From IMG/VR virus record IMGVR_UViG_3300037255_000025, positions 105,749 to 169,748 of that record: DNA of 64,000 nucleotides; one strand, given 5' to 3'. This document shows positions 6,688-63,140 of this stretch, one piece after another (within the stretch, counting starts at the first letter, position 1; each line of letters begins with the position of its first letter). This DNA comes from a virus. Its lineage: Duplodnaviria > Caudoviricetes. The notes below the pieces were generated by a model, which was not told the DNA's origin, ran no database searches, and saw only the letters and a program-made list of their open reading frames with translations. Both the position numbers and the translations under genes were made by a program.

Positions 6688-7020
6688 GTGCCCTGGATCA
6701 TCAAGCTCACGGAGCTGGCCACGACGCACTGGCCCTCCCCGGGACGGACGGCGTACCTGCGGGCGTGGCCCCAAGGCCCTGTTGGGTGGCGCGCCGTCCA
6801 GATGACGCACATCGTCGCGACCGACGGCGCGGCCGTTTGGGTGCCAGAGCTGAGCCTGGCGAAGGTGTTCGCCACCGAGGAGATCGCGCGCGCCGCGGCG
6901 GACCGATGCCGGTCCAAGATCGGGGAGGCGCGGTTTGTGCGGCTTGAGTTCGCGGACTGGGCGGGGGAACTGTTGGAGCGAGAAGCCGCCCACGCTGGGG
7001 GTAAGGGACCGCGAACGTGA
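6688..7020 (+). CDS. small paralogue family member
   Basis: PWIIKL...AKVFATEEIA...WAGELLEREAA; stop overlaps tnpB start. Confidence 0.75.
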   Translation: MPWIIKLTELATTHWPSPGRTAYLRAWPQGPVGWRAVQMTHIVATDGAAVWVPELSLAKVFATEEIARAAADRCRSKIGEARFVRLEFADWAGELLEREAAHAGGKGPRT

Positions 7021-8240
7021 AGATCCTCCGAGCGTACAAGACCGAGCTGGACCCCACGGTCTCCCAGACCGAGCAGCTCCTACAGCACGCCGGTTGCGCT
7101 CGCTGGGCTTACAACTGGGGTCTCCGAAGGAAGATCGAGTCCTACGAAGCTACGGGCAAGAGTCCGTCCTGGGTGGATCTCAACCGCGAGCTGAACGTGA
7201 TCAAGAAGCTCCCCAAGGAAGCCGGCGGGGTCCCGTGGATGTACGAGTCCTCGAAGTGTGCCCCGCAGGAAGCGCTCCGAAACCTTGATCGAGCCTTTGA
7301 GGGCTTCTTTCGTCGGTGTAAGAGCGGCTCGAAGCGGAAAGGCTTCCCTCGGTTCAAGTCTCGTAAGCGGGGCATCGGTAGCTTCAAGTTCAGCGGAACG
7401 ATTCATGTAGAAGAGCGACGGGTTCAGCTTCCCCGTCTCGGGAAGATCAAGCTCAAGCAACGCGGGTACCTCCCGACCTCGGGGGTGAAGATCCTCTCAG
7501 CTTCGGTCTCGGAGCGAGCGGGGCGGTGGTTCGTTTCGATCCAGGTTGAACAGGGGCTACCGGATCCCGCACCCAAGCCCACGTCGGTTCTCGGGATCGA
7601 CGTTGGGATCAAGAATCTCGGGGTCACCAGCGAAGGCGAGGTCTTCTCCAACCCGAAGGCGCTCCTGGCAGCGCAGAAGCTTCTCCGAGCGCGTCAGAAG
7701 TCTCTCGCGAGAAAGACCAAAGGATCGAACAACAGGAGGAAAACGGCCGCTAGGGTCGCCCGTCTACACGCTAGGATCTCCAATATCCGGAGGGATTCGA
7801 TCCACAAGATGACGACTGCGATCACCAAGCAGGCGTCGGTTCTCGTGATCGAGGATCTCAACGTCCTTGGGATGCTGAGAAACCACTGTCTCGCCCGGTC
7901 TCTGTCGGATGCCTCCCTCGGGGAGATCCGCCGGCAGCTCACCTACAAGAGCAAGTGGCGCGGGGTCGAGCTTCGGGTAGCGGACCGCTTCTATCCAAGC
8001 AGCAAGAGGTGCTCGGGGTGTGGAGCGGTCAAGGTCTCGCTCTCGTTGGCCGAGAGGGTCTACCGATGCGAGCTTTGTGGTCTCGTGATCGATCGAGACC
8101 TGAACGCTGCCCTCAACTTGAAAGATTTGGCCGGGAGTTCCCCGGTGCAAGCCTGTCGCCCTGGAGGCTCTGGTGCTGCTCTTACGAGCGGTACGAAACC
8201 TCTGGTTGGGCAGGAACCGAACCGGGAGGCTTCCTCGTGA
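7017..8240 (+). CDS. tnpB: RNA-guided endonuclease TnpB, copy 1
   Basis: RAYKTEL N-terminus; RuvC GIDVG / IEDL / DRDLNAA; CxxC-CxxC zinc ribbon. Confidence 0.95.
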   Translation: MKILRAYKTELDPTVSQTEQLLQHAGCARWAYNWGLRRKIESYEATGKSPSWVDLNRELNVIKKLPKEAGGVPWMYESSKCAPQEALRNLDRAFEGFFRRCKSGSKRKGFPRFKSRKRGIGSFKFSGTIHVEERRVQLPRLGKIKLKQRGYLPTSGVKILSASVSERAGRWFVSIQVEQGLPDPAPKPTSVLGIDVGIKNLGVTSEGEVFSNPKALLAAQKLLRARQKSLARKTKGSNNRRKTAARVARLHARISNIRRDSIHKMTTAITKQASVLVIEDLNVLGMLRNHCLARSLSDASLGEIRRQLTYKSKWRGVELRVADRFYPSSKRCSGCGAVKVSLSLAERVYRCELCGLVIDRDLNAALNLKDLAGSSPVQACRPGGSGAALTSGTKPLVGQEPNREASS

Positions 8241-9490: not shown

Positions 9491-10306
9491 TTAACGGAGA
9501 CCGAGCGCTCGGAGCTTCTTTTCCACAGTTGAGCGGGCACGGCCGAGATCCCGGGGCCAGTCGACGACCTTGACGATCTCGAGGCGCTCGAGCGCCGCGT
9601 TGCGCGCGGGAGTCGGCTCGGGCTCGGCCTTCCAAAGACCGTTGACGCCAAGCCGGCTTCGCTCCGCCGTTTGCTCCGGGGGCGCCGCGCTGGGCTCCTG
9701 GCACTTCTTGACCCGGCCGTCCGCGACGTCATCGATTTGCTCCGCCGGCAGGACCTCGTTCCCCGCGTCGGCGTCGACGCCCGCCCGGAGGAACAAACCA
9801 CGGGTCCGCGCCGACCGGGAGGAACTCGACTTGGCCGTGGGTCCCGCCGCGGGGGCCCCGGGTTCAACGATCTCGGCCAGCATCCACAGCGGCTTGTTCA
9901 GTTCGTGCAGGACGTCATCGAGCACGCGGTACGTGTCGGGATCGCGCTCGCCCGCGACGCTCGCGCGCGTGCTGCTGAGCCGCCGCACGACCGTCTGGAG
10001 CATCGTCCGGATCGCCGCCGCGACCGCGATGCCCGTGAGACCCTCGAACGACGGCGTGGGCAAGTCGGTCACGACGGTCTCGGCGACGCCGCCCAGCGCC
10101 CGCACGCGCTCCATCACGGCGTCGGCATGCTCGGTCAGCAGCCCCTCGTAGAGCCGCTCGAGGAACCGATGGAGCGCCAGGAACTGCGGGCCCGTGACGT
10201 TCACGTGCGCGTTGTGCGCCGCCAACCCAAGCGCGTTCAGCTCCGAGGCACGCCGGTTCAGCTCCGCCACGAGAGAAGATCGCTCAACGTCGGGCATCGT
10301 CATCAC
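9491..10306 (-). CDS. dps: Dps/ferritin-like protein with C-terminal extension
   Basis: AHNAHVNVTGPQFLALHRFLE and DAVMERVRALGG Dps signatures. Confidence 0.85.
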   Translation of the reverse strand: MMTMPDVERSSLVAELNRRASELNALGLAAHNAHVNVTGPQFLALHRFLERLYEGLLTEHADAVMERVRALGGVAETVVTDLPTPSFEGLTGIAVAAAIRTMLQTVVRRLSSTRASVAGERDPDTYRVLDDVLHELNKPLWMLAEIVEPGAPAAGPTAKSSSSRSARTRGLFLRAGVDADAGNEVLPAEQIDDVADGRVKKCQEPSAAPPEQTAERSRLGVNGLWKAEPEPTPARNAALERLEIVKVVDWPRDLGRARSTVEKKLRALGLR

Positions 10307-37221: not shown

Positions 37222-40035
37222 TTAGTCGGGCGAGATCACGCGCGCTCCGACGGAGCCCGCCTGGATCGCGTGTTGAATCGCGCACTGGCGCGCGAAGCAC
37301 ATCGCGGCGATGCGGTCGGGTGTGTGGGCCGCGGGGTCGTAGCTGAACAGGTTCGACAGCCACTCGCTGGTCTCGCGGTCGCGCTGCTTGCCGTCGTGAC
37401 CCGTGGGGATGATCCACTTCTTGTTCATCATCTCGACCGCCACGGCCTCGACGACGAATTCGAGTGACGGGTTGACGCCCGAGCCGGTCCGGTAGGGCAC
37501 GACCGTGATGGCGCTGCGTCGGCTTAGCATGTCCAACATGCCCAACTGCGCCCCGACGGACTCGACCATGACGATCGACCCGAAGCGCTCGGCCGCGCTC
37601 TCGACCTTCGCGATCGTGTCGGGGCTGGTCCACCGGCCCGCCTCGACCTCGAGCACCCGCCGGTCCCCGTTGGGCATGACCGCGATCGTGAAGATGCATG
37701 ATAGGTCCGCCGCCGCCTTCTTGGAGAACGCCAAGTCCACGCCCGTGTAGATCCCGATGCGGTCCAGCGGACCCTCGGCGTGGTCCCCGAGGAGCCGCGC
37801 CGACTCAGCGGCAAGCTGCTGGTCGGCCCAGTCAGGGTGTCGCTCGAGCAGCTCATCGAACAGGTCCCCGGCCGAGTGACACGGGCGCAACCCCTCACCG
37901 CGCGCGCAACAAGCGTCCACCCACTCGCGCTTGAACCGCAAGCTCTCGTCGTCGCGCGCCTGGCACAACAGGGCCCGCGCGAACTCGAACGGCCCCATGT
38001 CCATGCGCTTCTGCTCGATGCGCTTCGGGGTCCACCGCTCGGGCCAGGCGACGACGCCCTGCTCGTCGTAAACCGGGAACCGGTACAACGCGAAACCCGG
38101 CTTCTTGGAAAGCCGGTGAACGAGGTCGTCCGGGTGCCAAGCGTTACTGAGTACAACCACGCGGGCCGAGCCCGTGAGCCGGCCCATCAGGGTCGCCTGC
38201 ACCCAGTTCCATAGGTGGTCGCGCGGGGTCTGGGTCCGGGTGTTCTCCGAATCCAACACGTCGTCCAGGATCAGGTCGTCGATGCGGGCGCCGTGGATGT
38301 TGCCGAAGATGCCCGTGGCCTGGACGCTCGGGTCCTTCGCGAACACGGTCCGCTCGACCGTGAGCTGGTGCAGGTTGAACGGCATCCGGACGTCCTTGGA
38401 CCGGACGAGGTTCGGGAAGACCTCGTGTAGCTCGTCGGACTGCTGAATGTACTGCCCGATGCTCCGGACGATCTTCTGGGCGAGCTGGCTCGTCTTGGTG
38501 ACGATGACGACGCGGCGGTTGGGGTTGCGCCCCAGGTTCCACAGCGTCCGACCCACGGACATCTGCACGGTGTTGTGCGTGACGATGTAGTCGCGGCCCG
38601 CAACGTACGTGCAGTCCGGCGAGGCCTCCGGGTCTACCGCGATGCAGCGCATCGGCACCGTGTCGACCCGGTCGATCGCTACAACGCACCGATACGTCAC
38701 GCGCGCGCCCCGCGCCGAGACCTCGCCGGTCTCGTGCATCGCTCGCTTCCGCGGAGACCAAAAGACGGGGTCGTGACTCGTGAAGCACACGCGCCAATTG
38801 GGCCCCATGTCCTGCCCGTTGAGCGTCGCCCGCTCCGTCGCGATGGTCGCCTTGATCCCGAGAGACCGCGCTAGCTCCAACACCGAGACGGCCAAGCGCT
38901 GCGTCGTGCTCGAGAATTCTACCCGTGCGCCTGCCGCCGACCCGTCGGTGTCGAGTAGTCCCGCGAGCAAGTCGCGCCGCTGCTCGACGGACCCGATGAG
39001 GTAGTCGGCCGGAACGTGCTTGTCCTCGAGCACGCCAACCTGCCGAAGCTTGTCCCGAAGACCCAACGCCCTAACGCCGCGCCGCCCGCCGCCGATCGTC
39101 ACCGTTACCGCGTTCGAACCCCTCTTGTCGTACGGCCAAACGCTCACCGGCGGGAGCCCCAGAAGCTCGTGACACCGGTCGGCCACCGCGCGGTCCTCAC
39201 CGTTGAACGTGACCGTAGCCTTGCCGACGGACCCGTTCCCAAGCCAGACCCCCAACACGTAAGGCGGCACCAGGTACGCGCGCGCCGGGTATTCCACCGG
39301 CGCCGTCAGCGGGATCCTCCAGTTGTAGAGGTCGTACCGCGACCCGTCGGCGCGTTTAGCCCCAGACCGCCGCGTCAAGCCCGCGTCGATCATTTCCTGC
39401 GTTGTCACGACGCGCCAACCGTCCTCCGAGAGTTCAGCTCGACTCGCGGCTTTGCGACGTGCCGCGCTCGCGGCCAAGCCATCGAGGAAAGCCTGCGACG
39501 GCGGCCGCTTCAGCTTACTCGGATCAGTGCGACGAGGTCGCTGTACCCGGCCGGTCTTTTCCGACGAGAGCCGGCCGACATCCGCCAAGTTGCGTGCGAC
39601 CCAGCGGTGCTCGTCCGACGCCACGATCGAGGCCCCGTCGTCAAACGTGAGCCGGTAGGTGACGTGGTCTAGCTCGACGGGGCCCGCCCACGTCACGCGA
39701 CACGCGCGGCCGTTGCGCCCGAAGACGACGTCGCCCGCAGCGAGGTCCCCCATGGTCCGCCAACCACCCGGCGTCGGGACCGGCGTGTCGACCGCGAGGT
39801 GCTTCCCGCTCTCAATCGCCGCAAGTATGAGTAATCGTTCATGTTTATCGAGAAGACCATGCCACGCGACGTGCTGCGGCGCGTTCGTGATGCGCTTGCC
39901 CGTCGACTCGTCGCGCAAGACGAACTGGTTGAACGCGACCGCGTTCGTCCGGGCCCGGACCGCAAGATTGCGCAGGACCTGATGGCCGACCGCGCTGTCG
40001 CGCGCGACCACGTGTTCTTCGGGCCAGTCAGCCAC
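37222..40035 (-). CDS. terL: terminase large subunit containing an intein
   Basis: Walker A ESGK|T, Walker B LILDDVLD, NAWHPDDL, nuclease GVDLA; GGAGG before GTG 40035. Confidence 0.9.
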   Translation of the reverse strand: MADWPEEHVVARDSAVGHQVLRNLAVRARTNAVAFNQFVLRDESTGKRITNAPQHVAWHGLLDKHERLLILAAIESGKHLAVDTPVPTPGGWRTMGDLAAGDVVFGRNGRACRVTWAGPVELDHVTYRLTFDDGASIVASDEHRWVARNLADVGRLSSEKTGRVQRPRRTDPSKLKRPPSQAFLDGLAASAARRKAASRAELSEDGWRVVTTQEMIDAGLTRRSGAKRADGSRYDLYNWRIPLTAPVEYPARAYLVPPYVLGVWLGNGSVGKATVTFNGEDRAVADRCHELLGLPPVSVWPYDKRGSNAVTVTIGGGRRGVRALGLRDKLRQVGVLEDKHVPADYLIGSVEQRRDLLAGLLDTDGSAAGARVEFSSTTQRLAVSVLELARSLGIKATIATERATLNGQDMGPNWRVCFTSHDPVFWSPRKRAMHETGEVSARGARVTYRCVVAIDRVDTVPMRCIAVDPEASPDCTYVAGRDYIVTHNTVQMSVGRTLWNLGRNPNRRVVIVTKTSQLAQKIVRSIGQYIQQSDELHEVFPNLVRSKDVRMPFNLHQLTVERTVFAKDPSVQATGIFGNIHGARIDDLILDDVLDSENTRTQTPRDHLWNWVQATLMGRLTGSARVVVLSNAWHPDDLVHRLSKKPGFALYRFPVYDEQGVVAWPERWTPKRIEQKRMDMGPFEFARALLCQARDDESLRFKREWVDACCARGEGLRPCHSAGDLFDELLERHPDWADQQLAAESARLLGDHAEGPLDRIGIYTGVDLAFSKKAAADLSCIFTIAVMPNGDRRVLEVEAGRWTSPDTIAKVESAAERFGSIVMVESVGAQLGMLDMLSRRSAITVVPYRTGSGVNPSLEFVVEAVAVEMMNKKWIIPTGHDGKQRDRETSEWLSNLFSYDPAAHTPDRIAAMCFARQCAIQHAIQAGSVGARVISPD
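38572..39801 (-). mobile_element. class-3 intein (410 aa) with LAGLIDADG homing endonuclease domain
   Basis: HLAVDTPVPTPGGW start; HRW, MRCI, VTHN|T; LGVWLGNG and LLAGLLDTDG blocks. Confidence 0.9.
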
Positions 40036-40867
40036 GGAGCCTCCGCAGGACCTCGGCGGCGGCCCACCAAGCAAGCACACCGCCCACGCGGCCCCCGCCG
40101 GTCGCGACCACGATACCGGGCGACGCCTCTCGCACGGTGGGCTCGGGCAGGACAGGGCGCATCCCCCAGATTGAACCACGATCCTCAAGCGTGCCCACAG
40201 CTTCTTGGAGCGGACCCAACGCCCGCACGCGCATTTTCTCTGTGTAGTCGTGCGCGCGCGATGGATCGCGCTCCAAAGTCTCGCCAAGCCGCACGACACC
40301 CAACCCCCACGAACGCGCCGCGTAGGCAAAGTACGACGTCACCGGGACCAGCATCGTCCGTGCGGGCGTTCGCTCCGCCTTGAACAAGAGACCGCGCCCG
40401 CCGAGCGCCTCGACGCCCACGAGGGCAAGCCCGCTTGCGTTCAGAATCTGGTCCGTCCAGACGCCCGCGGCGAGCACAACAAGCCCGCCCTCGACAACGT
40501 CGCCCCCCTGGAGGTGTACGCGGCCGCGCTCGACGCGCGTGACCTTCCCCGCAGCCCGCTCTGCGTAGAGCGCCAAAACGTCCTCGGGCCAGAACGTCGC
40601 CCAGTCCAACCGTGCCTTGCGTCCGACGACATCGGCACCGTCGAAGTCAAAAACAGCCCCGTGTTGCCGTCCGAGCGACTCGGCTGCGCGCGCTCGCTCG
40701 GCCCAAAGGCCCTTGTACCAAGAGCGCGCGTAATAGCCGCTCGCCGCTCGTGAGGCCGCGCTGGGCTCCGCCGAGTCGATCAAGGTAACAGACGCGCCTG
40801 CGTCGGCCGCGACCCGCGCGATAGCGGTCCCCCAGAAGCCGCCGCCCACCACGACGAGGTCCTTCAA
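40028..40867 (-). CDS. FAD-dependent oxidoreductase (DAO/glycine-oxidase-like)
   Basis: VVVGGGFWG dinucleotide fold, ASRAASG, VLAAGVW, WGMRP. Confidence 0.85.
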   Translation of the reverse strand: MKDLVVVGGGFWGTAIARVAADAGASVTLIDSAEPSAASRAASGYYARSWYKGLWAERARAAESLGRQHGAVFDFDGADVVGRKARLDWATFWPEDVLALYAERAAGKVTRVERGRVHLQGGDVVEGGLVVLAAGVWTDQILNASGLALVGVEALGGRGLLFKAERTPARTMLVPVTSYFAYAARSWGLGVVRLGETLERDPSRAHDYTEKMRVRALGPLQEAVGTLEDRGSIWGMRPVLPEPTVREASPGIVVATGGGRVGGVLAWWAAAEVLRRLRG

Positions 40868-42194: not shown

Positions 42195-43144
42195 GCGTCA
42201 GACTCCTCTGGCTCAACAACCTGGGGCTCGTCCTCCTCGTCCTCTTCGAGCGGCCCGCCGAGGGCCCCACGGAGGTTCTTCGCGCGCTCCCGCTCCTCCG
42301 CAGGGCTCAGGCAATCGAGCATGCCAGTGCGGAAGTAGAAAACTACCGAAATCCGCTCGTGGCCCCCGTGGTCTGGGTCGCCCGCGGGGCCGACGGCGCC
42401 GTGTATGGGCGTGTTGCCGTGGACCTCGTGCGGGTCGAACGCGATGACGTCACGGTCCTGGAGATCCACCGCGACGCCGAAGCGCGGGAATACCAATTCG
42501 CCCCCGCGATAGCTACCCTGACGCAAGACGCTGATGATGCCGAACCCCTCGGGTAGGTCGCCTGCGTCGCGATGGCAACCGCCAGCGAAGGTGTTGTTGA
42601 CCGTGAGGGTCGTGAAGGGCGTGCCGGGGACCACGTACGCCGGGTGCGTCTTGGCGGCCGCCACCATTTGAGCCGCGTACCGGTCCGGCGCGACCGACTC
42701 GAACACCCGCGCGACCTGCTGGACGTATGGAAAGCACGCGGCCCACTCTTCCGGCCGCTCCATCGAGGCCGCGCAGGCCCGACAGTACGGGATGCGCGCG
42801 TAGCGGTCCGACGAGCCTACGACGGCCGACGCTACAGGTTGACCACCAATGTTCGTGCGAGAAAGCTGGCCCGACGCCAAGACACGCTTGTTGCGACCAG
42901 AGGCGCCGAAGTGCCCACGGTTGTTGGTCTTGCGGTTGCGAAGCCAGTGAAGGAACGGGTAAGCGGCGTCCGCGGCCTCGCGGTTCACGGCGGCGCGCCG
43001 GAGCGTCAACAGGCGCTCGCCTGACGGCTTGTAGACCGTGCAGTCGCCCTCGGCCTTCAGGACGATGTCCTGGGGCAGCATCCGGCGCCCCAGCATGGCC
43101 TCAACCTCTGCTGCGGGCCGCTGCCCTCTGAGCTGTACGATCAC
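42191..43144 (-). CDS. TET/JBP-family 2OG-Fe(II) dioxygenase
   Basis: TPFTTLTVN, HRD.GD (HxD), HEVHGNTP, RISVVFYFR. Confidence 0.88.
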   Translation of the reverse strand: MIVQLRGQRPAAEVEAMLGRRMLPQDIVLKAEGDCTVYKPSGERLLTLRRAAVNREAADAAYPFLHWLRNRKTNNRGHFGASGRNKRVLASGQLSRTNIGGQPVASAVVGSSDRYARIPYCRACAASMERPEEWAACFPYVQQVARVFESVAPDRYAAQMVAAAKTHPAYVVPGTPFTTLTVNNTFAGGCHRDAGDLPEGFGIISVLRQGSYRGGELVFPRFGVAVDLQDRDVIAFDPHEVHGNTPIHGAVGPAGDPDHGGHERISVVFYFRTGMLDCLSPAEERERAKNLRGALGGPLEEDEEDEPQVVEPEESDA

Positions 43145-43884
43145 GCTTCCCCGGGGAGCCCCGCGACAGCCTGCGCAACCGCGGCCAACACGGCCTCCGT
43201 GACGTTCGGCGTACCCCAGGCGGCGTTGAGCCGCTGGCATTCCGCCAAGAACTTCGGCTGCGTCGTCGAATCCAGGTAGAGCTGCACCATGCGAGTCTGC
43301 GCCACCCCCGCGTCAGGCGTGTCGCTACCCTGGTGGAGGTTCTGCCTCGGCTCGTCTTGCTCGCCCAGCGCAGGGTTTTCACCGTCACCGACGGTCGACA
43401 CCTCCATGGGCGCGACCGCCAGCATCTTCATCAGCTCCTCCTCACCGAAGCCGAGGTCGATCGCGCTCAGGGCCTCGCCCCCTTGGTCAAGGCCGCGCAG
43501 CAAGTCCTCCAGCTTCGTCGGGTCCCACTGGCCACGCTTCTGGTTCATCTTGACCGTGAGCTTCTTGGCCTCGGCCTCGGTCAAGCCGTTCAGGAAGACC
43601 ATCGGACCGGACTTCAGCCCCAACTCGGTCGCGGCAGCCCAACGGTGCTCCCCGTCTACAATCAGGTCACGCTTCGCCCCGGTCTCGTCCGTCCCCCAGA
43701 CAAGCAGCGCCTGGGACGCGAGCCAGCCGTCCTCGAGCAGGCCGTGCTTCAGGCTCTCGGCCTGGGCGGGCGTCATGACGTTCGGATTGTACCCGTTGGG
43801 CTTGACGCTCTTGAGGGGTCGCATCACGACCTCGCCCACGACCCGGGCCTTCTTCTCCACCGCGGGCTCTTGCTCGACGCTCAT
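43141..43884 (-). CDS. ParB/Srx N-terminal domain protein
   Basis: PNGYNPN, IVDGEHRW, N..RG. Confidence 0.85.
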   Translation of the reverse strand: MSVEQEPAVEKKARVVGEVVMRPLKSVKPNGYNPNVMTPAQAESLKHGLLEDGWLASQALLVWGTDETGAKRDLIVDGEHRWAAATELGLKSGPMVFLNGLTEAEAKKLTVKMNQKRGQWDPTKLEDLLRGLDQGGEALSAIDLGFGEEELMKMLAVAPMEVSTVGDGENPALGEQDEPRQNLHQGSDTPDAGVAQTRMVQLYLDSTTQPKFLAECQRLNAAWGTPNVTEAVLAAVAQAVAGLPGEA

Positions 43885-43899
43885 GCCCGCACTGTCTCA

Positions 43900-44009
43900 G
43901 AGACGTCTCAAACTTGCAACGTTCTCCGGGGGGTTCAGCAAGCTGATACCCGGTTCGGTTCCTGCCCAACCAGAGGTTTCGTACCACGCTTACGCGCAGC
44001 ACCAGAGCC
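43900..44009 (-). ncRNA. orphan omegaRNA-like element without tnpB (guide TTGCAAGTTTGAGACGTCTC)
   Basis: 90-nt homology (43920-44009) to tnpB 3' ends, with compensatory stem changes, ending GGAGAACG. Confidence 0.75.
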
Positions 44010-44181
44010 GCCCCGGTACCGCCGCCCTGGCTTCCGCCTCTGTATTGAATACCCAGGCGAACTCAACCAACGGCGTGAACGAACGCGCGGCCGTGAGATC
44101 GCTGTTGCGTAGGTAGTAGTAGTACCCTGGCTTCTGTTCCGGACGACCTAGTTCACCCGCTCTGTATCGGACGACCCACAC
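43990..44181 (-). pseudogene. paralogue family member truncated by the omegaRNA element
   Basis: VWVVRY...YYYYL...AWVFNTEAEA, then runs into the omegaRNA; lacks the VVxLAD tail. Confidence 0.6.
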
Positions 44182-44189
44182 GGGGGCGG

Positions 44190-44945
44190 CTACTTGGAGC
44201 AGAGCGCGGGCGAGAACAACTTCCCCGGCCACTGCACGGCGAAGCCCGCTCGGGCGTCTCGGACACGCGCCTCGGCCGCGACGATGTCGTCGCCCGCTTC
44301 CTTGACCTCGTAGAGGTTGACGACGCCGAAGCGCGCGCCGTTCGCCCGGATGTGCGCGAGCCGGGCCTGCTGATACCGGAGGTTCGCGAGGGCGTCGCAA
44401 GTCGCACGCGCGTCGTTCGCGATATGCTCGGCCGTCCTTCGGACCATGCAAGCCCGGTCGGGTCGGCACGCCCGCTCCTCCACCAGGAGCTTCTCGTAAG
44501 CGTTGAGCGCCATCGAGAGCTTCACGTCGTCCGGCGGGGCCTCGTCGCACGTGTCCTTGAACGCGCTCCTCGCCAGGGTGAACCGCTCACGCGCGTCCGC
44601 TAGATCCCGCTCGCGCGACTCGATGTCGCCGAAGAACGGGTCGATGCGCGTGACGATCTCGACCGACGCCAGCTTGGCCTCAAGCGCCTTTCGGGCCTTC
44701 AGGCACTGCATCGCCTGCTGCCCGTCCGCCACGCCCTTGGCCGCCATCGCGAGGGCCTGCTGGTTGCGCGCGGCCTGTTCGTCACGCATCCGCTGGAAGT
44801 TGGCCTCCCGGGCCTGCGCCCGGGCCTCGGGACTCGGGCCGGTTGTGTGCGGTGCGGGGTTGCGCTGCCCAACCGTGATACCGCCGAAGTCGCAACCTGC
44901 GCACGCGAGCAAAACGAAGAAGAGACCTAGCTGTAGCGGTTTCAT
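44190..44945 (-). CDS. lipoprotein
   Basis: MKPLQLGLFFVLLACAGC signal/lipobox. Confidence 0.7.
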   Translation of the reverse strand: MKPLQLGLFFVLLACAGCDFGGITVGQRNPAPHTTGPSPEARAQAREANFQRMRDEQAARNQQALAMAAKGVADGQQAMQCLKARKALEAKLASVEIVTRIDPFFGDIESRERDLADARERFTLARSAFKDTCDEAPPDDVKLSMALNAYEKLLVEERACRPDRACMVRRTAEHIANDARATCDALANLRYQQARLAHIRANGARFGVVNLYEVKEAGDDIVAAEARVRDARAGFAVQWPGKLFSPALCSK

Positions 44946-51505: not shown

Positions 51506-52108
51506 TCATGTGGTTGGGTTGGGCTGGGCCGTGTCGAGGAACCCGATCAGCTCCGACAGCAGGTCCTGAACCGGCTGGGAGGCGTCGAACTGGTGCCCAA
51601 GATTCGGCCCAGTGCCCCAAGCCTCCGCAAACCGGCGGGACTTCGTCGCGCGGCCCAGCATCCAGTTGGGGTTCTGGTTCGAGCCCCGGGCGGCGCGCCT
51701 CTCCGCCAACAACGGCTCAGGCGCGACCAGGTGCGCGACCGCGAGCGTGGCCCCGGGGCCCGGTCGACATTGGCCCGCTACGGAGCTGCGGTCGAAGAAC
51801 CGCGCGACCTTCTCGAGGCTAAACCGGTCACCGTCGAAGACGGTCAACGGGCAGCCGTGGAGCGCCGGGTCCGCGGCCCATGAGTCCAGCGAGGCCTCGA
51901 CGCCGTTGTACGGGACCGTGTCGGCGCCGTCGAACGTTCCGCCCGTGTAGTGTCCCGCCGCGACCATAGCGCCCGGCACGACGGTCCACTTGGGCTTGGG
52001 CGTGCCATAGCGAAGTTGACCGGAGTCGAGCCAATCGAGCAGCGCCCGAACCAACGTCGTCTTGCCGCACCCCGGCGCACCAACGACCCATAGAATGGTG
52101 GGCGTCAC
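51506..52108 (-). CDS. P-loop kinase, 5-hydroxymethyluracil DNA kinase-like
   Basis: GAPGCGKTT, GHY.GGTFDGAD, FDGDRF, RR.ARGS.QN..W..GR.TK. Confidence 0.75.
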   Translation of the reverse strand: MTPTILWVVGAPGCGKTTLVRALLDWLDSGQLRYGTPKPKWTVVPGAMVAAGHYTGGTFDGADTVPYNGVEASLDSWAADPALHGCPLTVFDGDRFSLEKVARFFDRSSVAGQCRPGPGATLAVAHLVAPEPLLAERRAARGSNQNPNWMLGRATKSRRFAEAWGTGPNLGHQFDASQPVQDLLSELIGFLDTAQPNPTT

Positions 52109-52338
52109 GACCACGACCGCGACCGCGACCACAACCCCGACCCCGACCGCGACCCCGACCCCGACCACGACCACGACCACGACCTCGACCACGACCGCGA
52201 CCGCGACCCCGACCGCAACCGCGACCCCGACCTCGACCCCGACCACGACCCCGACCGCGACCTCGACCGCGACCCCGACCACGACCCCGACCGCGACCTC
52301 GACGACTCGAAGCCTGCTCGCATGACCGCCGCGTTCAC
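52105..52338 (-). CDS. Ser-Arg/Gly/Trp dipeptide repeat protein
   Basis: SRSGSWSG repeats encoded by 6-nt repeats; coupled to both neighbours. Confidence 0.65.
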   Translation of the reverse strand: MNAAVMRAGFESSRSRSGSWSGSRSRSRSGSWSGSRSGSRLRSGSRSRSWSRSWSWSWSGSGSRSGSGLWSRSRSWS

Positions 52339-53931: not shown

Positions 53932-54078
53932 GCGCTACCCCTTACGTTCTCCGGGGCCGGTTTGCTTCACGAGGAAGCCTCCCGGTTCGGTTCCTGCCCA
54001 ACCAGAGGTTTCGTACCGCTCGTAAGAGCAGCACCAGAGCCTCCAGGGCGACAGGCTTGCACCGGGGAACTCCCGGCC
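53925..54078 (-). ncRNA. omegaRNA of tnpB copy 2 (scaffold ends 53945; guide TAAGGGGTAGCGCGTGGCGC)
   Basis: Shared 3' boundary with the other copies. Confidence 0.75.
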
Positions 54079-55190
54079 AAATCCTTCAAGTTGATAGCAG
54101 CGTTGAGATCCCGATCGATCACGAGACCACAACGCTCGCATCGGTAGACCCTCTCGCTCAACGAGAGCGAGGTCTTCACCGCCCCACACCCAGAACACCT
54201 CTTGCTGCTTGGGTAGAAGCGGTCCGCGGTCCTTAGCTCGACCCCACGCCACTGACTCTTGTAGGTGAGCTGTCGGTGGATCTCCCCGAGGGAGGCGTCC
54301 GACAGAGACCGGGCAAGACAGTGGTTTCTCAACATCCCGGCGACGTTGAGGTCTTCGATCACGATTACTGACGCCTGCTTGGTGATCGCAGTCGTCATCT
54401 TGTGGATCGAATCCCTCCGGATATTGGAGATCCTAGCGTGCAACCTCGCGACCTTCTGGGTCGCTTTCCTCCTGTTGTTGGACCCCTTCTGTTTCCTCGC
54501 GACCGCTTGTTGTCTCGCTCGGAGAAGCTTTTGAGCCGCCTGGAGAGCTTTTGGGTTCCTAAAGACCTCCCCCTCGCTGGTGACCGCCAAGCTCTTGATC
54601 CCAACGTCGACCCCGAGGACCGACGTGGGCTTGGGTGCGGGATCCGGTAGCTCTTGCTCCACCTGGATCGAGACGTACCAACGTCCCGCCTTCTCGGAGA
54701 CCGAAGCTGAGAGGATCTTCACCCCCGAGGTCGGGAGGTACCCGCGTTGCTTGAGCTTGATCTTCCCTAGCCTTGGGAGCTGAACGAGACGCTCCGAGAC
54801 CTTGATCCCCTCGCTGAACTTGAAGCTACCGATGCCCCGCTTACGAGACTTGAACCGAGGGAAGCCTTTCCGCTTCGAGCCGCTCTTACACCGACGAAAG
54901 AAGCCCTCAAAGGCTCGATCAAGGTTTCGGAGCGCTTCCTGCGGGGCACACTTCGAGGACTCGTACATCCACGGGACCCCGCCGGCTTCCTTGGGGAGCT
55001 TCTTGATCACGTTCAGCTCACGGTTGAGACCCACCCAGGACGGACTCTTGCCCGTAGCTTCGTAGGACTCGATCTTCCTTCGGAGACCCCAGTTGTAAGC
55101 CCAACGAGCGCAACCCGCATGCTGTAGGAGCTGCTCGGTTTGCTTCACCGTAGGATCCAGCTCGGTCTTGTATGCTCGAAGGATCTTCAC
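53967..55190 (-). CDS. tnpB: RNA-guided endonuclease TnpB, copy 2
   Basis: 407 aa, highly similar to copy 1; RuvC D/E/D intact. Confidence 0.95.
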   Translation of the reverse strand: MKILRAYKTELDPTVKQTEQLLQHAGCARWAYNWGLRRKIESYEATGKSPSWVGLNRELNVIKKLPKEAGGVPWMYESSKCAPQEALRNLDRAFEGFFRRCKSGSKRKGFPRFKSRKRGIGSFKFSEGIKVSERLVQLPRLGKIKLKQRGYLPTSGVKILSASVSEKAGRWYVSIQVEQELPDPAPKPTSVLGVDVGIKSLAVTSEGEVFRNPKALQAAQKLLRARQQAVARKQKGSNNRRKATQKVARLHARISNIRRDSIHKMTTAITKQASVIVIEDLNVAGMLRNHCLARSLSDASLGEIHRQLTYKSQWRGVELRTADRFYPSSKRCSGCGAVKTSLSLSERVYRCERCGLVIDRDLNAAINLKDLAGSSPVQACRPGGSGAALTSGTKPLVGQEPNREASS

Positions 55191-62994: not shown

Positions 62995-63140
62995 GACGGT
63001 CCCTTACGTCCTCCGGGGCCGGTTTGCTTCACGAGGAAGCCTCCCGGTTCGGTTCCTGCCCAACCAGAGGTTTCGCGATCCTCTTACGAGAACCGCCAGA
63101 GCCTCCAGGGCGACAGGCTGACACCGGGGAACTCCCGGCC
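62987..63140 (-). ncRNA. omegaRNA of tnpB copy 3 (scaffold ends 63007; guide TAAGGGACCGTCGTGACTTG)
   Basis: Shared 3' boundary; distinct but base-pair-preserving hairpin. Confidence 0.75.

Follow-up and report, generated by a model that had tools for sequence, protein, structure and literature searches.

Truncated TnpB guide-RNA scaffold beside the promoter-like element of a phage ParB operon is probably a deletion relic

Between a truncated small gene and a ParB-headed operon of a phage that occurs in peat metagenomes lies a remnant, on the minus strand, that is homologous to the 3' part of the omegaRNA scaffold overlapping the end of each TnpB gene in the window. With a probability that we put at about two in three, this remnant is a deletion relic of a transposase-less, IS607-derived TnpB cassette, and what would be its guide appears to coincide with the -35 box and spacer of a promoter-like element that is conserved ahead of the ParB operon. 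An earlier note on this DNA had described an orphan omegaRNA-derived scaffold, devoid of its own tnpB and followed by its own flank, and this description is confirmed. The note also allowed for two roles, a fourth guide usable in trans or a relic; the relic is the better reading, and the trans guide is unsupported given a left junction inside a gene, missing invariant parts, the lack of a detectable promoter of its own and the absence of any other match to the guide in IMG/VR or the phage. The window analysed here is the last 64 kb of a 169,748-bp IMG/VR virus record that has a 210-bp terminal overlap, and positions are those of the window (Table 1) unless given as genome positions.

Table 1. 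Features of the remnant locus and of related sequences in the window.
Feature	Position	Strand	Remarks
Upstream 251-aa gene	44190..44945	-	same strand as the remnant; sole possible origin of read-through transcription
Truncated small gene, 63 codons	43990..44181	-	homologue of the whole 86-aa gene of L210
Left junction, small phage gene to scaffold	44004..44012	-	imperfect microhomology ending in CTGG
Retained 3' part of TnpB omegaRNA scaffold, about 92 nt (about -92 to -1 from the guide)	43920..44011	-	alignment to copies 1-3 and orphan 2; repeat family D4; model R1
Stem 1	43982..44001	-	8 bp and GUAA loop
Stem 1, version of copies 1 and 2	8174-8193 and 54014-54033		
Stem 1, version of copy 3	63076-63095		
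Invariant 23-nt scaffold core	43957..43979	-	3' strands of helices P2 and P3; 5' partner strands missing
Stem 2	43935..43946	-	variant common to the remnant and orphan 2 only
Scaffold 3' end GGAGAACG	43920..43927	-	flank differs from the next base on
Nominal 20-nt guide	43900..43919	-	-35 hexamer TTGCAA (43919-43914) and most of the 17-nt spacer; contains the palindrome
10-bp palindrome	43900-43909		
-10-like GACAGT (43896-43891), 6 nt, ATG of ParB-like gene	43882..43896	-	
ParB-like gene	43141..43884	-	Pfam and PHROGs; first gene of the TET/JBP, ADDT, oxidoreductase and terminase block
TnpB copy 1	7017-8240	+	407 aa
TnpB copy 2	53967-55190	-	407 aa
TnpB copy 3	from 63029, runs over the ends of the record	-	407 aa
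tnpB ends of low synonymous divergence, overlapping the scaffold	8063-8240 and 53967-54143		
GGGTAAGGG sites	6999, 14368, 20922, 24565, 30458, 33755, 47747, 52747, 55203		

The three TnpB genes of the window are about 90% identical to one another, and all hold HTH, OrfB_IS605 and TNB domains together with the RuvC D/E/D triad. Likeness to the TnpB of ISDra2 (PMC8612924, PMC10097598) includes length, the triad, and an alignment of copy 2 over residues 5-370 (E 3e-66), and dN/dS between the copies is about 0.16 (codons 1-340). The resident genes are intact and under purifying selection, and the genome of the remnant holds a cognate, catalytically intact nuclease in three copies. Where tnpB overlaps the scaffold, over its last 67 codons, synonymous divergence between the copies drops about fourfold, to 0.10 from about 0.38. 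The closest relatives of these proteins are encoded on two viral contigs at 72-73% amino acid identity and on one at 59%, followed by Chloroflexota MAGs at about 52-56%. In the closest relatives (59-73%), a serine-recombinase tnpA stands directly 5' of tnpB, which is the layout of IS607 elements such as CboIStron (10.1101/2023.11.20.567912), and their scaffold ends in ..CGG, comparable to the UCGG end of the Cbo element.

The phage copies share with IS607 elements the G-rich DNA 5' of tnpB, but differ in having no intron and no adjacent tnpA (none was found in the neighbourhood of copies 1-3), in beginning, as far as likeness between the copies extends, only about 20 nucleotides 5' of the start codon, and in a right end that reads ..ACG followed by T rather than GG. 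They are thus not IS607 insertion sequences with a serine-recombinase tnpA and ends in GG, and the only two tnpA genes of the phage genome are of the Y1 type and adjoin distant TnpBs elsewhere. The resident cassettes appear to be an IS607-derived module minus its serine-recombinase tnpA. Among other repeated sequences, GGGTAAGGG is found nine times in the window versus 0.27 expected, including sites 5' of tnpB copies 1 and 2, and TAAGG(G) follows the scaffold end in four of the six genome copies. A 71-nt AT-rich direct repeat in the otherwise GC-rich genome (46699-46769 and 59857-59927, 80% identity) heads a gene block at each of its copies, and a long run of 6/12-nt CGACCN-type repeats lies within an ORF at 52072-52330.

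Scaffold and tnpB overlap, as in ISDra2, at the 3' end of the gene, and the sequence immediately beyond the right end serves as the guide. When JGI metagenomes were scanned for the invariant 23-nt core, 31 loci emerged, and 22 distinct scaffolds were aligned, with the remnant left out, giving a consensus structure and a covariance model (R1). In the consensus, P1 is a 5' hairpin, P2 and P3 are long-range helices in which the core pairs with a conserved 5' segment, and these are accompanied by the variable stem 1 and by a helix that closes around the variable stem 2; 96% of cells pair in the 22-member family versus 82% in shuffles. All seven pairs of stem 1 and four of the five pairs of P1 covary among the 22 members; P2, which is invariant, is 100% paired and P3 99% paired, and neither can be proved by covariation because both barely vary. 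The AGUUC loop of P1, near the 5' end, is able to pair with GAAC beside the guide in 86% of cells, resembling the ISDra2 pseudoknot, though no covariation was found for this pairing of loop and scaffold tail in the 22-member family, with which it is compatible only. At the 3' end, GGAGAACG is constant in all 22 members, bar an A-to-G change in two rows of this phage, and the flank of every copy changes immediately after it. Rfam matched no family, either at gathering thresholds over the window or in E-value mode with a full copy.

Model R1 scores copies 1-3 at 131-133 bits, the remnant at 49.5 bits (E about 2e-10), and orphan 2, a complete scaffold with no tnpB that lies outside the window (genome 85123-85296; L002:1423-1596), at 132 bits. 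The remnant also belongs to a 64-nt repeat family (D4), with identities of 91% and 83%, and its match to the scaffold is far above chance. The covarying stem-1 hairpin, which stands between the 5' segment and the core, is present, and the versions that the earlier note had read in the remnant, in copies 1 and 2, and in copy 3 were all located. Relative to copies 1 and 2, stem 1 of the remnant carries five changes, consisting of a U-A to G-C double change, a G-C to G-U change, and two changes in the loop; the hairpin survives all five, and the U-A to G-C replacement represents a compensatory pair. The 33 nucleotides after stem 1 are identical between the remnant and copies 1 and 2, and the invariant core and the GGAGAACG end, directly 5' of a variable flank, are likewise in place, the 3' boundary being kept as had been claimed. 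Stem 2 differs from that of copies 1-3 and still folds; the two-nucleotide loop ascribed to it is impossible, so the stem is one of 4 bp with a CUUG loop. Orphan 2 is a mosaic with the stem 2 of the remnant and the stem 1 of copies 1 and 2.

Every invariant base is present in the retained 92 nucleotides and all substitutions within them are structure-neutral, a pattern that fits a selected RNA but can equally reflect an origin before the truncation, or gene conversion between copies. The compensatory changes indicate that the lineage evolved as a constrained RNA, but do not imply constraint after the truncation, because stem modules also reassort between copies.

The remnant has neither P1 nor the 5' strands of P2 and P3; the 5' hairpin is absent, as had been noticed, and the loss is larger than was supposed. 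Phage-gene sequence stands where the conserved 5' segment would close on the core through P2 and P3, P2 is broken according to R1 (its pairs are non-canonical), and in place of P1 with its AGUUC loop the model aligns merely an unrelated 5-bp hairpin from the gene. No tnpB overlaps the scaffold in cis; the upstream DNA is a phage gene, and tblastn at the remnant recovers just TnpB residues 383-403, which are internal to the scaffold itself. The 116-nt scaffold of ISDra2 depends on its 5'-most stem 1 (-116 to -111) and on a pseudoknot strand (-105 to -103), both within the protein-bound conserved core, and only RNA 5' of -117 is dispensable (PMC10097598; PMC13639567). The remnant is unlike ISDra2 in that it stops at about -92, within the region that ISDra2 needs (-116 to -1), in that it is without a tnpB in cis, and in that its RNA family has no Rfam match. 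By analogy, the missing parts would build the stem-1/pseudoknot core gripped by TnpB, and the remnant is most likely not a working guide RNA because it has lost these parts, which do not vary across the family, its stand-alone metagenomic copies included; the need for P1 and P2 in this scaffold family is argued from the ISDra2 analogy.

The origin of the truncation is best seen by comparison with a 6.6-kb JGI contig (Ga0643771_0020538, here L210) that carries the nearest relative of the ParB-like protein (78% amino acid identity) and is the sole match in a homologue search with the upstream 251-aa protein. Positions 45035-44001 of the window correspond to L210:133-1163 at 92% identity, and positions 43929-43185 to L210:2957-3711 at 84%. 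The switch from the small gene to the scaffold falls just before stem 1, at a point where the L210 gene runs on, and stem 1 contains the last few codons of the window's truncated gene together with its stop, a TAA in the loop. Positions 44013-44190 were considered as decayed tnpB coding DNA, a candidate that is ruled out by their being the small phage gene, 92% identical to L210. A search upstream of the remnant found no left end, and a "phages" BLAST of the remnant locus gave no match.

From these observations we infer both an order of events and a loss of function. A full cassette would once have abutted, by its right end, the -35 box of the promoter for the ParB, TET/JBP, ADDT and terminase genes. 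A single deletion, or an aborted copying event, would then have removed the 3' end of the small gene, the whole of tnpB and the first third of the scaffold, joining CTGG microhomology in the small gene to the scaffold. Left over would be stem 1, the conserved core, stem 2 and the scaffold end, next to a "guide" that represents the promoter DNA which the cassette had abutted. That the junction is instead an assembly chimera made at the repeated scaffold core is scarcely credible. The core is repeated five times in the genome, and short-read contigs from other samples break within it, but the stem-1 variant is unique to this locus and contiguous with both flanks, a 673-nt contig from another sample covers 43309-43981 with zero differences, and two sequencing runs hold 99% of the sampled words. 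Support for the junction itself comes only from the source assembly and from two runs out of which that assembly may have been made.

On the right side, the remnant is followed by a distinct guide with a 10-bp palindrome, as the earlier note had it; the flank is unique, and the palindrome is not enriched in the window (four matches at up to one mismatch versus 5.5 expected). The flank forms part of the arrangement TTGCAA-N17-GACAGT-N6-ATG upstream of the ParB-like gene, of which TTGCxx-N17-GAxAGT is kept in L210, L211, L230, L212 and L231 while the remaining sequence diverges. A strict consensus scan for promoters and terminators over 43600-44500 called nothing, the promoter-like element included, and gave no promoter-like site of the remnant's own. 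The operon encodes the ParB-like protein, TET/JBP, ADDT, an FAD-oxidoreductase and an intein-bearing large terminase, the gene for the large terminase subunit (37222-40329, minus strand) being interrupted by a LAGLIDADG / Hom_end intein.

L210 is identical over the 38 nucleotides that separate the scaffold end from the ATG, and there an intact 471-aa TnpB of another family, unmatched by R1, occupies positions 1524-2967 and ends at the exact junction of the remnant. No TnpB is present at this position in L211, L212/213, L230 or L231; a 484-aa gene upstream of ParB in L230 was considered as a candidate and is not a TnpB. Homology of the last 30 nucleotides of the L210 cassette to stem 2 of the remnant, about 70% by eye, was also considered, and was set aside when neither MAFFT nor the model supported it.

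The presence of a protein partner and the commonness of stand-alone scaffolds in this family are points against a relic, and are in keeping with a working guide in trans, whereby read-through transcripts of the remnant would be loaded by TnpB copies 1-3. Such a guide would cut co-infecting relatives in which the same promoter stands behind a G-rich TAM and the insert is absent, favouring inheritance of the modification-terminase block. Nothing is missing from the retained scaffold core, the two hairpins or the 3' end, and the TnpB genes are intact and under purifying selection; protein-less IS605 elements (PATEs) with omegaRNAs used in trans have been proposed (10.1101/2023.03.14.532601); orphans are frequent, one 300-nt module occurring with three flanks; and the other TnpB abutting the same flank in L210 shows a site that attracts such elements. 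Read-through transcription is likely, as an operon precedes the remnant in the sense orientation. We nevertheless consider a working trans guide unlikely, since the P1 and P2/P3 strands that it is without are kept by nearly all other orphans, the fold predicted for the remnant in a longer sequence context is without stem 1, ribosomes ending the truncated gene run into stem 1, the consensus scan detected no promoter of its own, and searches of the phage and of IMG/VR gave no target that matches. In one leaf-litter RNA run, two 151-nt contigs map to the upstream gene (44552-44882) and the remnant is covered by none, contigs being uninformative on expression and on RNA ends.

The guide search that the earlier note had suggested was run on the phage and on IMG/VR and returned no second target. 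In a seed search of the phage with all six guides, the remnant guide matched only itself, and the 16 hits of an IMG/VR scan with guide 15-mers are all chance, none extending past the 15-mer. It is quite unlikely, in our estimate, that the remnant and orphan 2 are both still loaded by the phage TnpBs, with the remnant guide cutting the promoter of rivals' hypermodification and packaging genes; were this true, a single nuclease family would run a small dispersed guide set, approaching the CRISPR-like arrangement of "one effector, many guides".

As in PATEs (10.1101/2023.03.14.532601), the remnant is a guide-RNA scaffold without a nuclease gene, able to act, if at all, only through a TnpB encoded elsewhere in the genome. 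PATEs, however, are moved by TnpA and have a whole omegaRNA as well as both transposon ends, between which no coding gene lies, whereas the remnant has a truncated scaffold and no left end, its left edge being a junction in a broken gene. Like the guide RNAs of TldRs, which are nuclease-dead TnpB repressors (PMC10705468), the nominal guide covers a promoter-like element; unlike TldRs, the phage TnpBs keep the catalytic triad, and the guide matches only its own DNA, preceded by the scaffold end rather than a TAM, with no match at a second promoter.

The remnant is one member of a series. As the earlier note had proposed, the phage carries several scaffolds, orphan 2 being the fifth. About twelve metagenomic cores have no tnpB upstream. 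The right-end homology retained by 11 metagenomic orphans amounts to 82, 105+, 113, 116, 121, 129, 159, 190, 200, 256 and 417 nt, and that of the phage's own orphans to 174 nt (orphan 2) and 93 nt (the remnant); most of these 13 keep at least the whole scaffold, only the remnant and L186 being shorter, and five orphans without tnpB coding sequence upstream still carry the 5' segment. Truncated copies all keep the exact right boundary and vary on the left only. The copies of the phage, with this boundary in common, run from full length (three copies) through 174-184 nt and 93 nt to 26 nt, the shortest being a scrap of the scaffold 3' end outside the window (genome 8317-8342, minus strand), which is immediately followed by TAAGG and, 7 nucleotides later, an ATG.

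Other stand-alone arrangements were seen among the metagenomic loci. The contig of L182 (QGNH01001869.1) is 95% identical to the phage genome at 2-15 kb and bears a degenerate orphan scaffold (9604-9735, 86.6 bits) at a position where the phage has merely an N-terminal tnpB scrap (genome 12345-12539). In L192 (4694-5184) and L201 (4137-4583), two cores lie about 420-470 nt apart on one strand, a full cassette being followed by a second, tnpB-less scaffold with its own flank. The loci L185 (1790-2106), L190 and L204 carry one module of about 300 nt with three right flanks and two left flanks, in which a TTGACA-N17-TAAGAG-like start is combined with a scrap of the tnpB C-terminus and a whole scaffold; its "own promoter", read by eye, was uncalled by the promoter scan. 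Such a module may represent a guide-only gene that is spreading or swapping guides.

The existence of this mini-module in several contexts raises the question of whether the remnant arrived already truncated, as a mobile guide-only module or as a partial gene-conversion tract after a break, with no deletion of a full cassette in situ. Repair synthesis that starts from the right flank and aborts would yield the exact right boundary that is always kept, and the reassortment of stem modules between copies also fits. Arrival in truncated form is nonetheless distinctly improbable, as the small gene is cut at the junction, and an insertion alone would spare both its 3' end and the DNA that L210 has there; nor was any allele seen with an intact gene and the remnant.

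A further possibility is that the remnant was co-opted as a cis element independent of TnpB, either a 3'-end stabiliser of the upstream mRNA or an insulator before the ParB promoter. Its place between the last gene of one transcription unit and the promoter-like element of the next, and the two stable hairpins predicted in it, would suit such a role, but the absence of a U-tract and of a terminator call, a folding z-score of only -1.3, and the fact that relatives do without the remnant make it extremely improbable.

As a deletion relic, the remnant is on its own an ordinary mobile-element fossil, and its context is more useful. The locus illustrates the decay of transposase-less TnpB cassettes in a phage, in which the exact right boundary persists as the left side is lost, and shows that such cassettes lodge against phage promoters, two unrelated TnpB lineages having come to lie, in two sister phages, at exactly one junction, the -35 box of a promoter. 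The metagenome survey suggests that guide-only modules of this scaffold family are usually trimmed to just the whole scaffold, as would be expected were selection to preserve complete stand-alone guides. The remnant falls below the length of the whole scaffold, and as such provides a natural negative control for how much scaffold TnpB needs.
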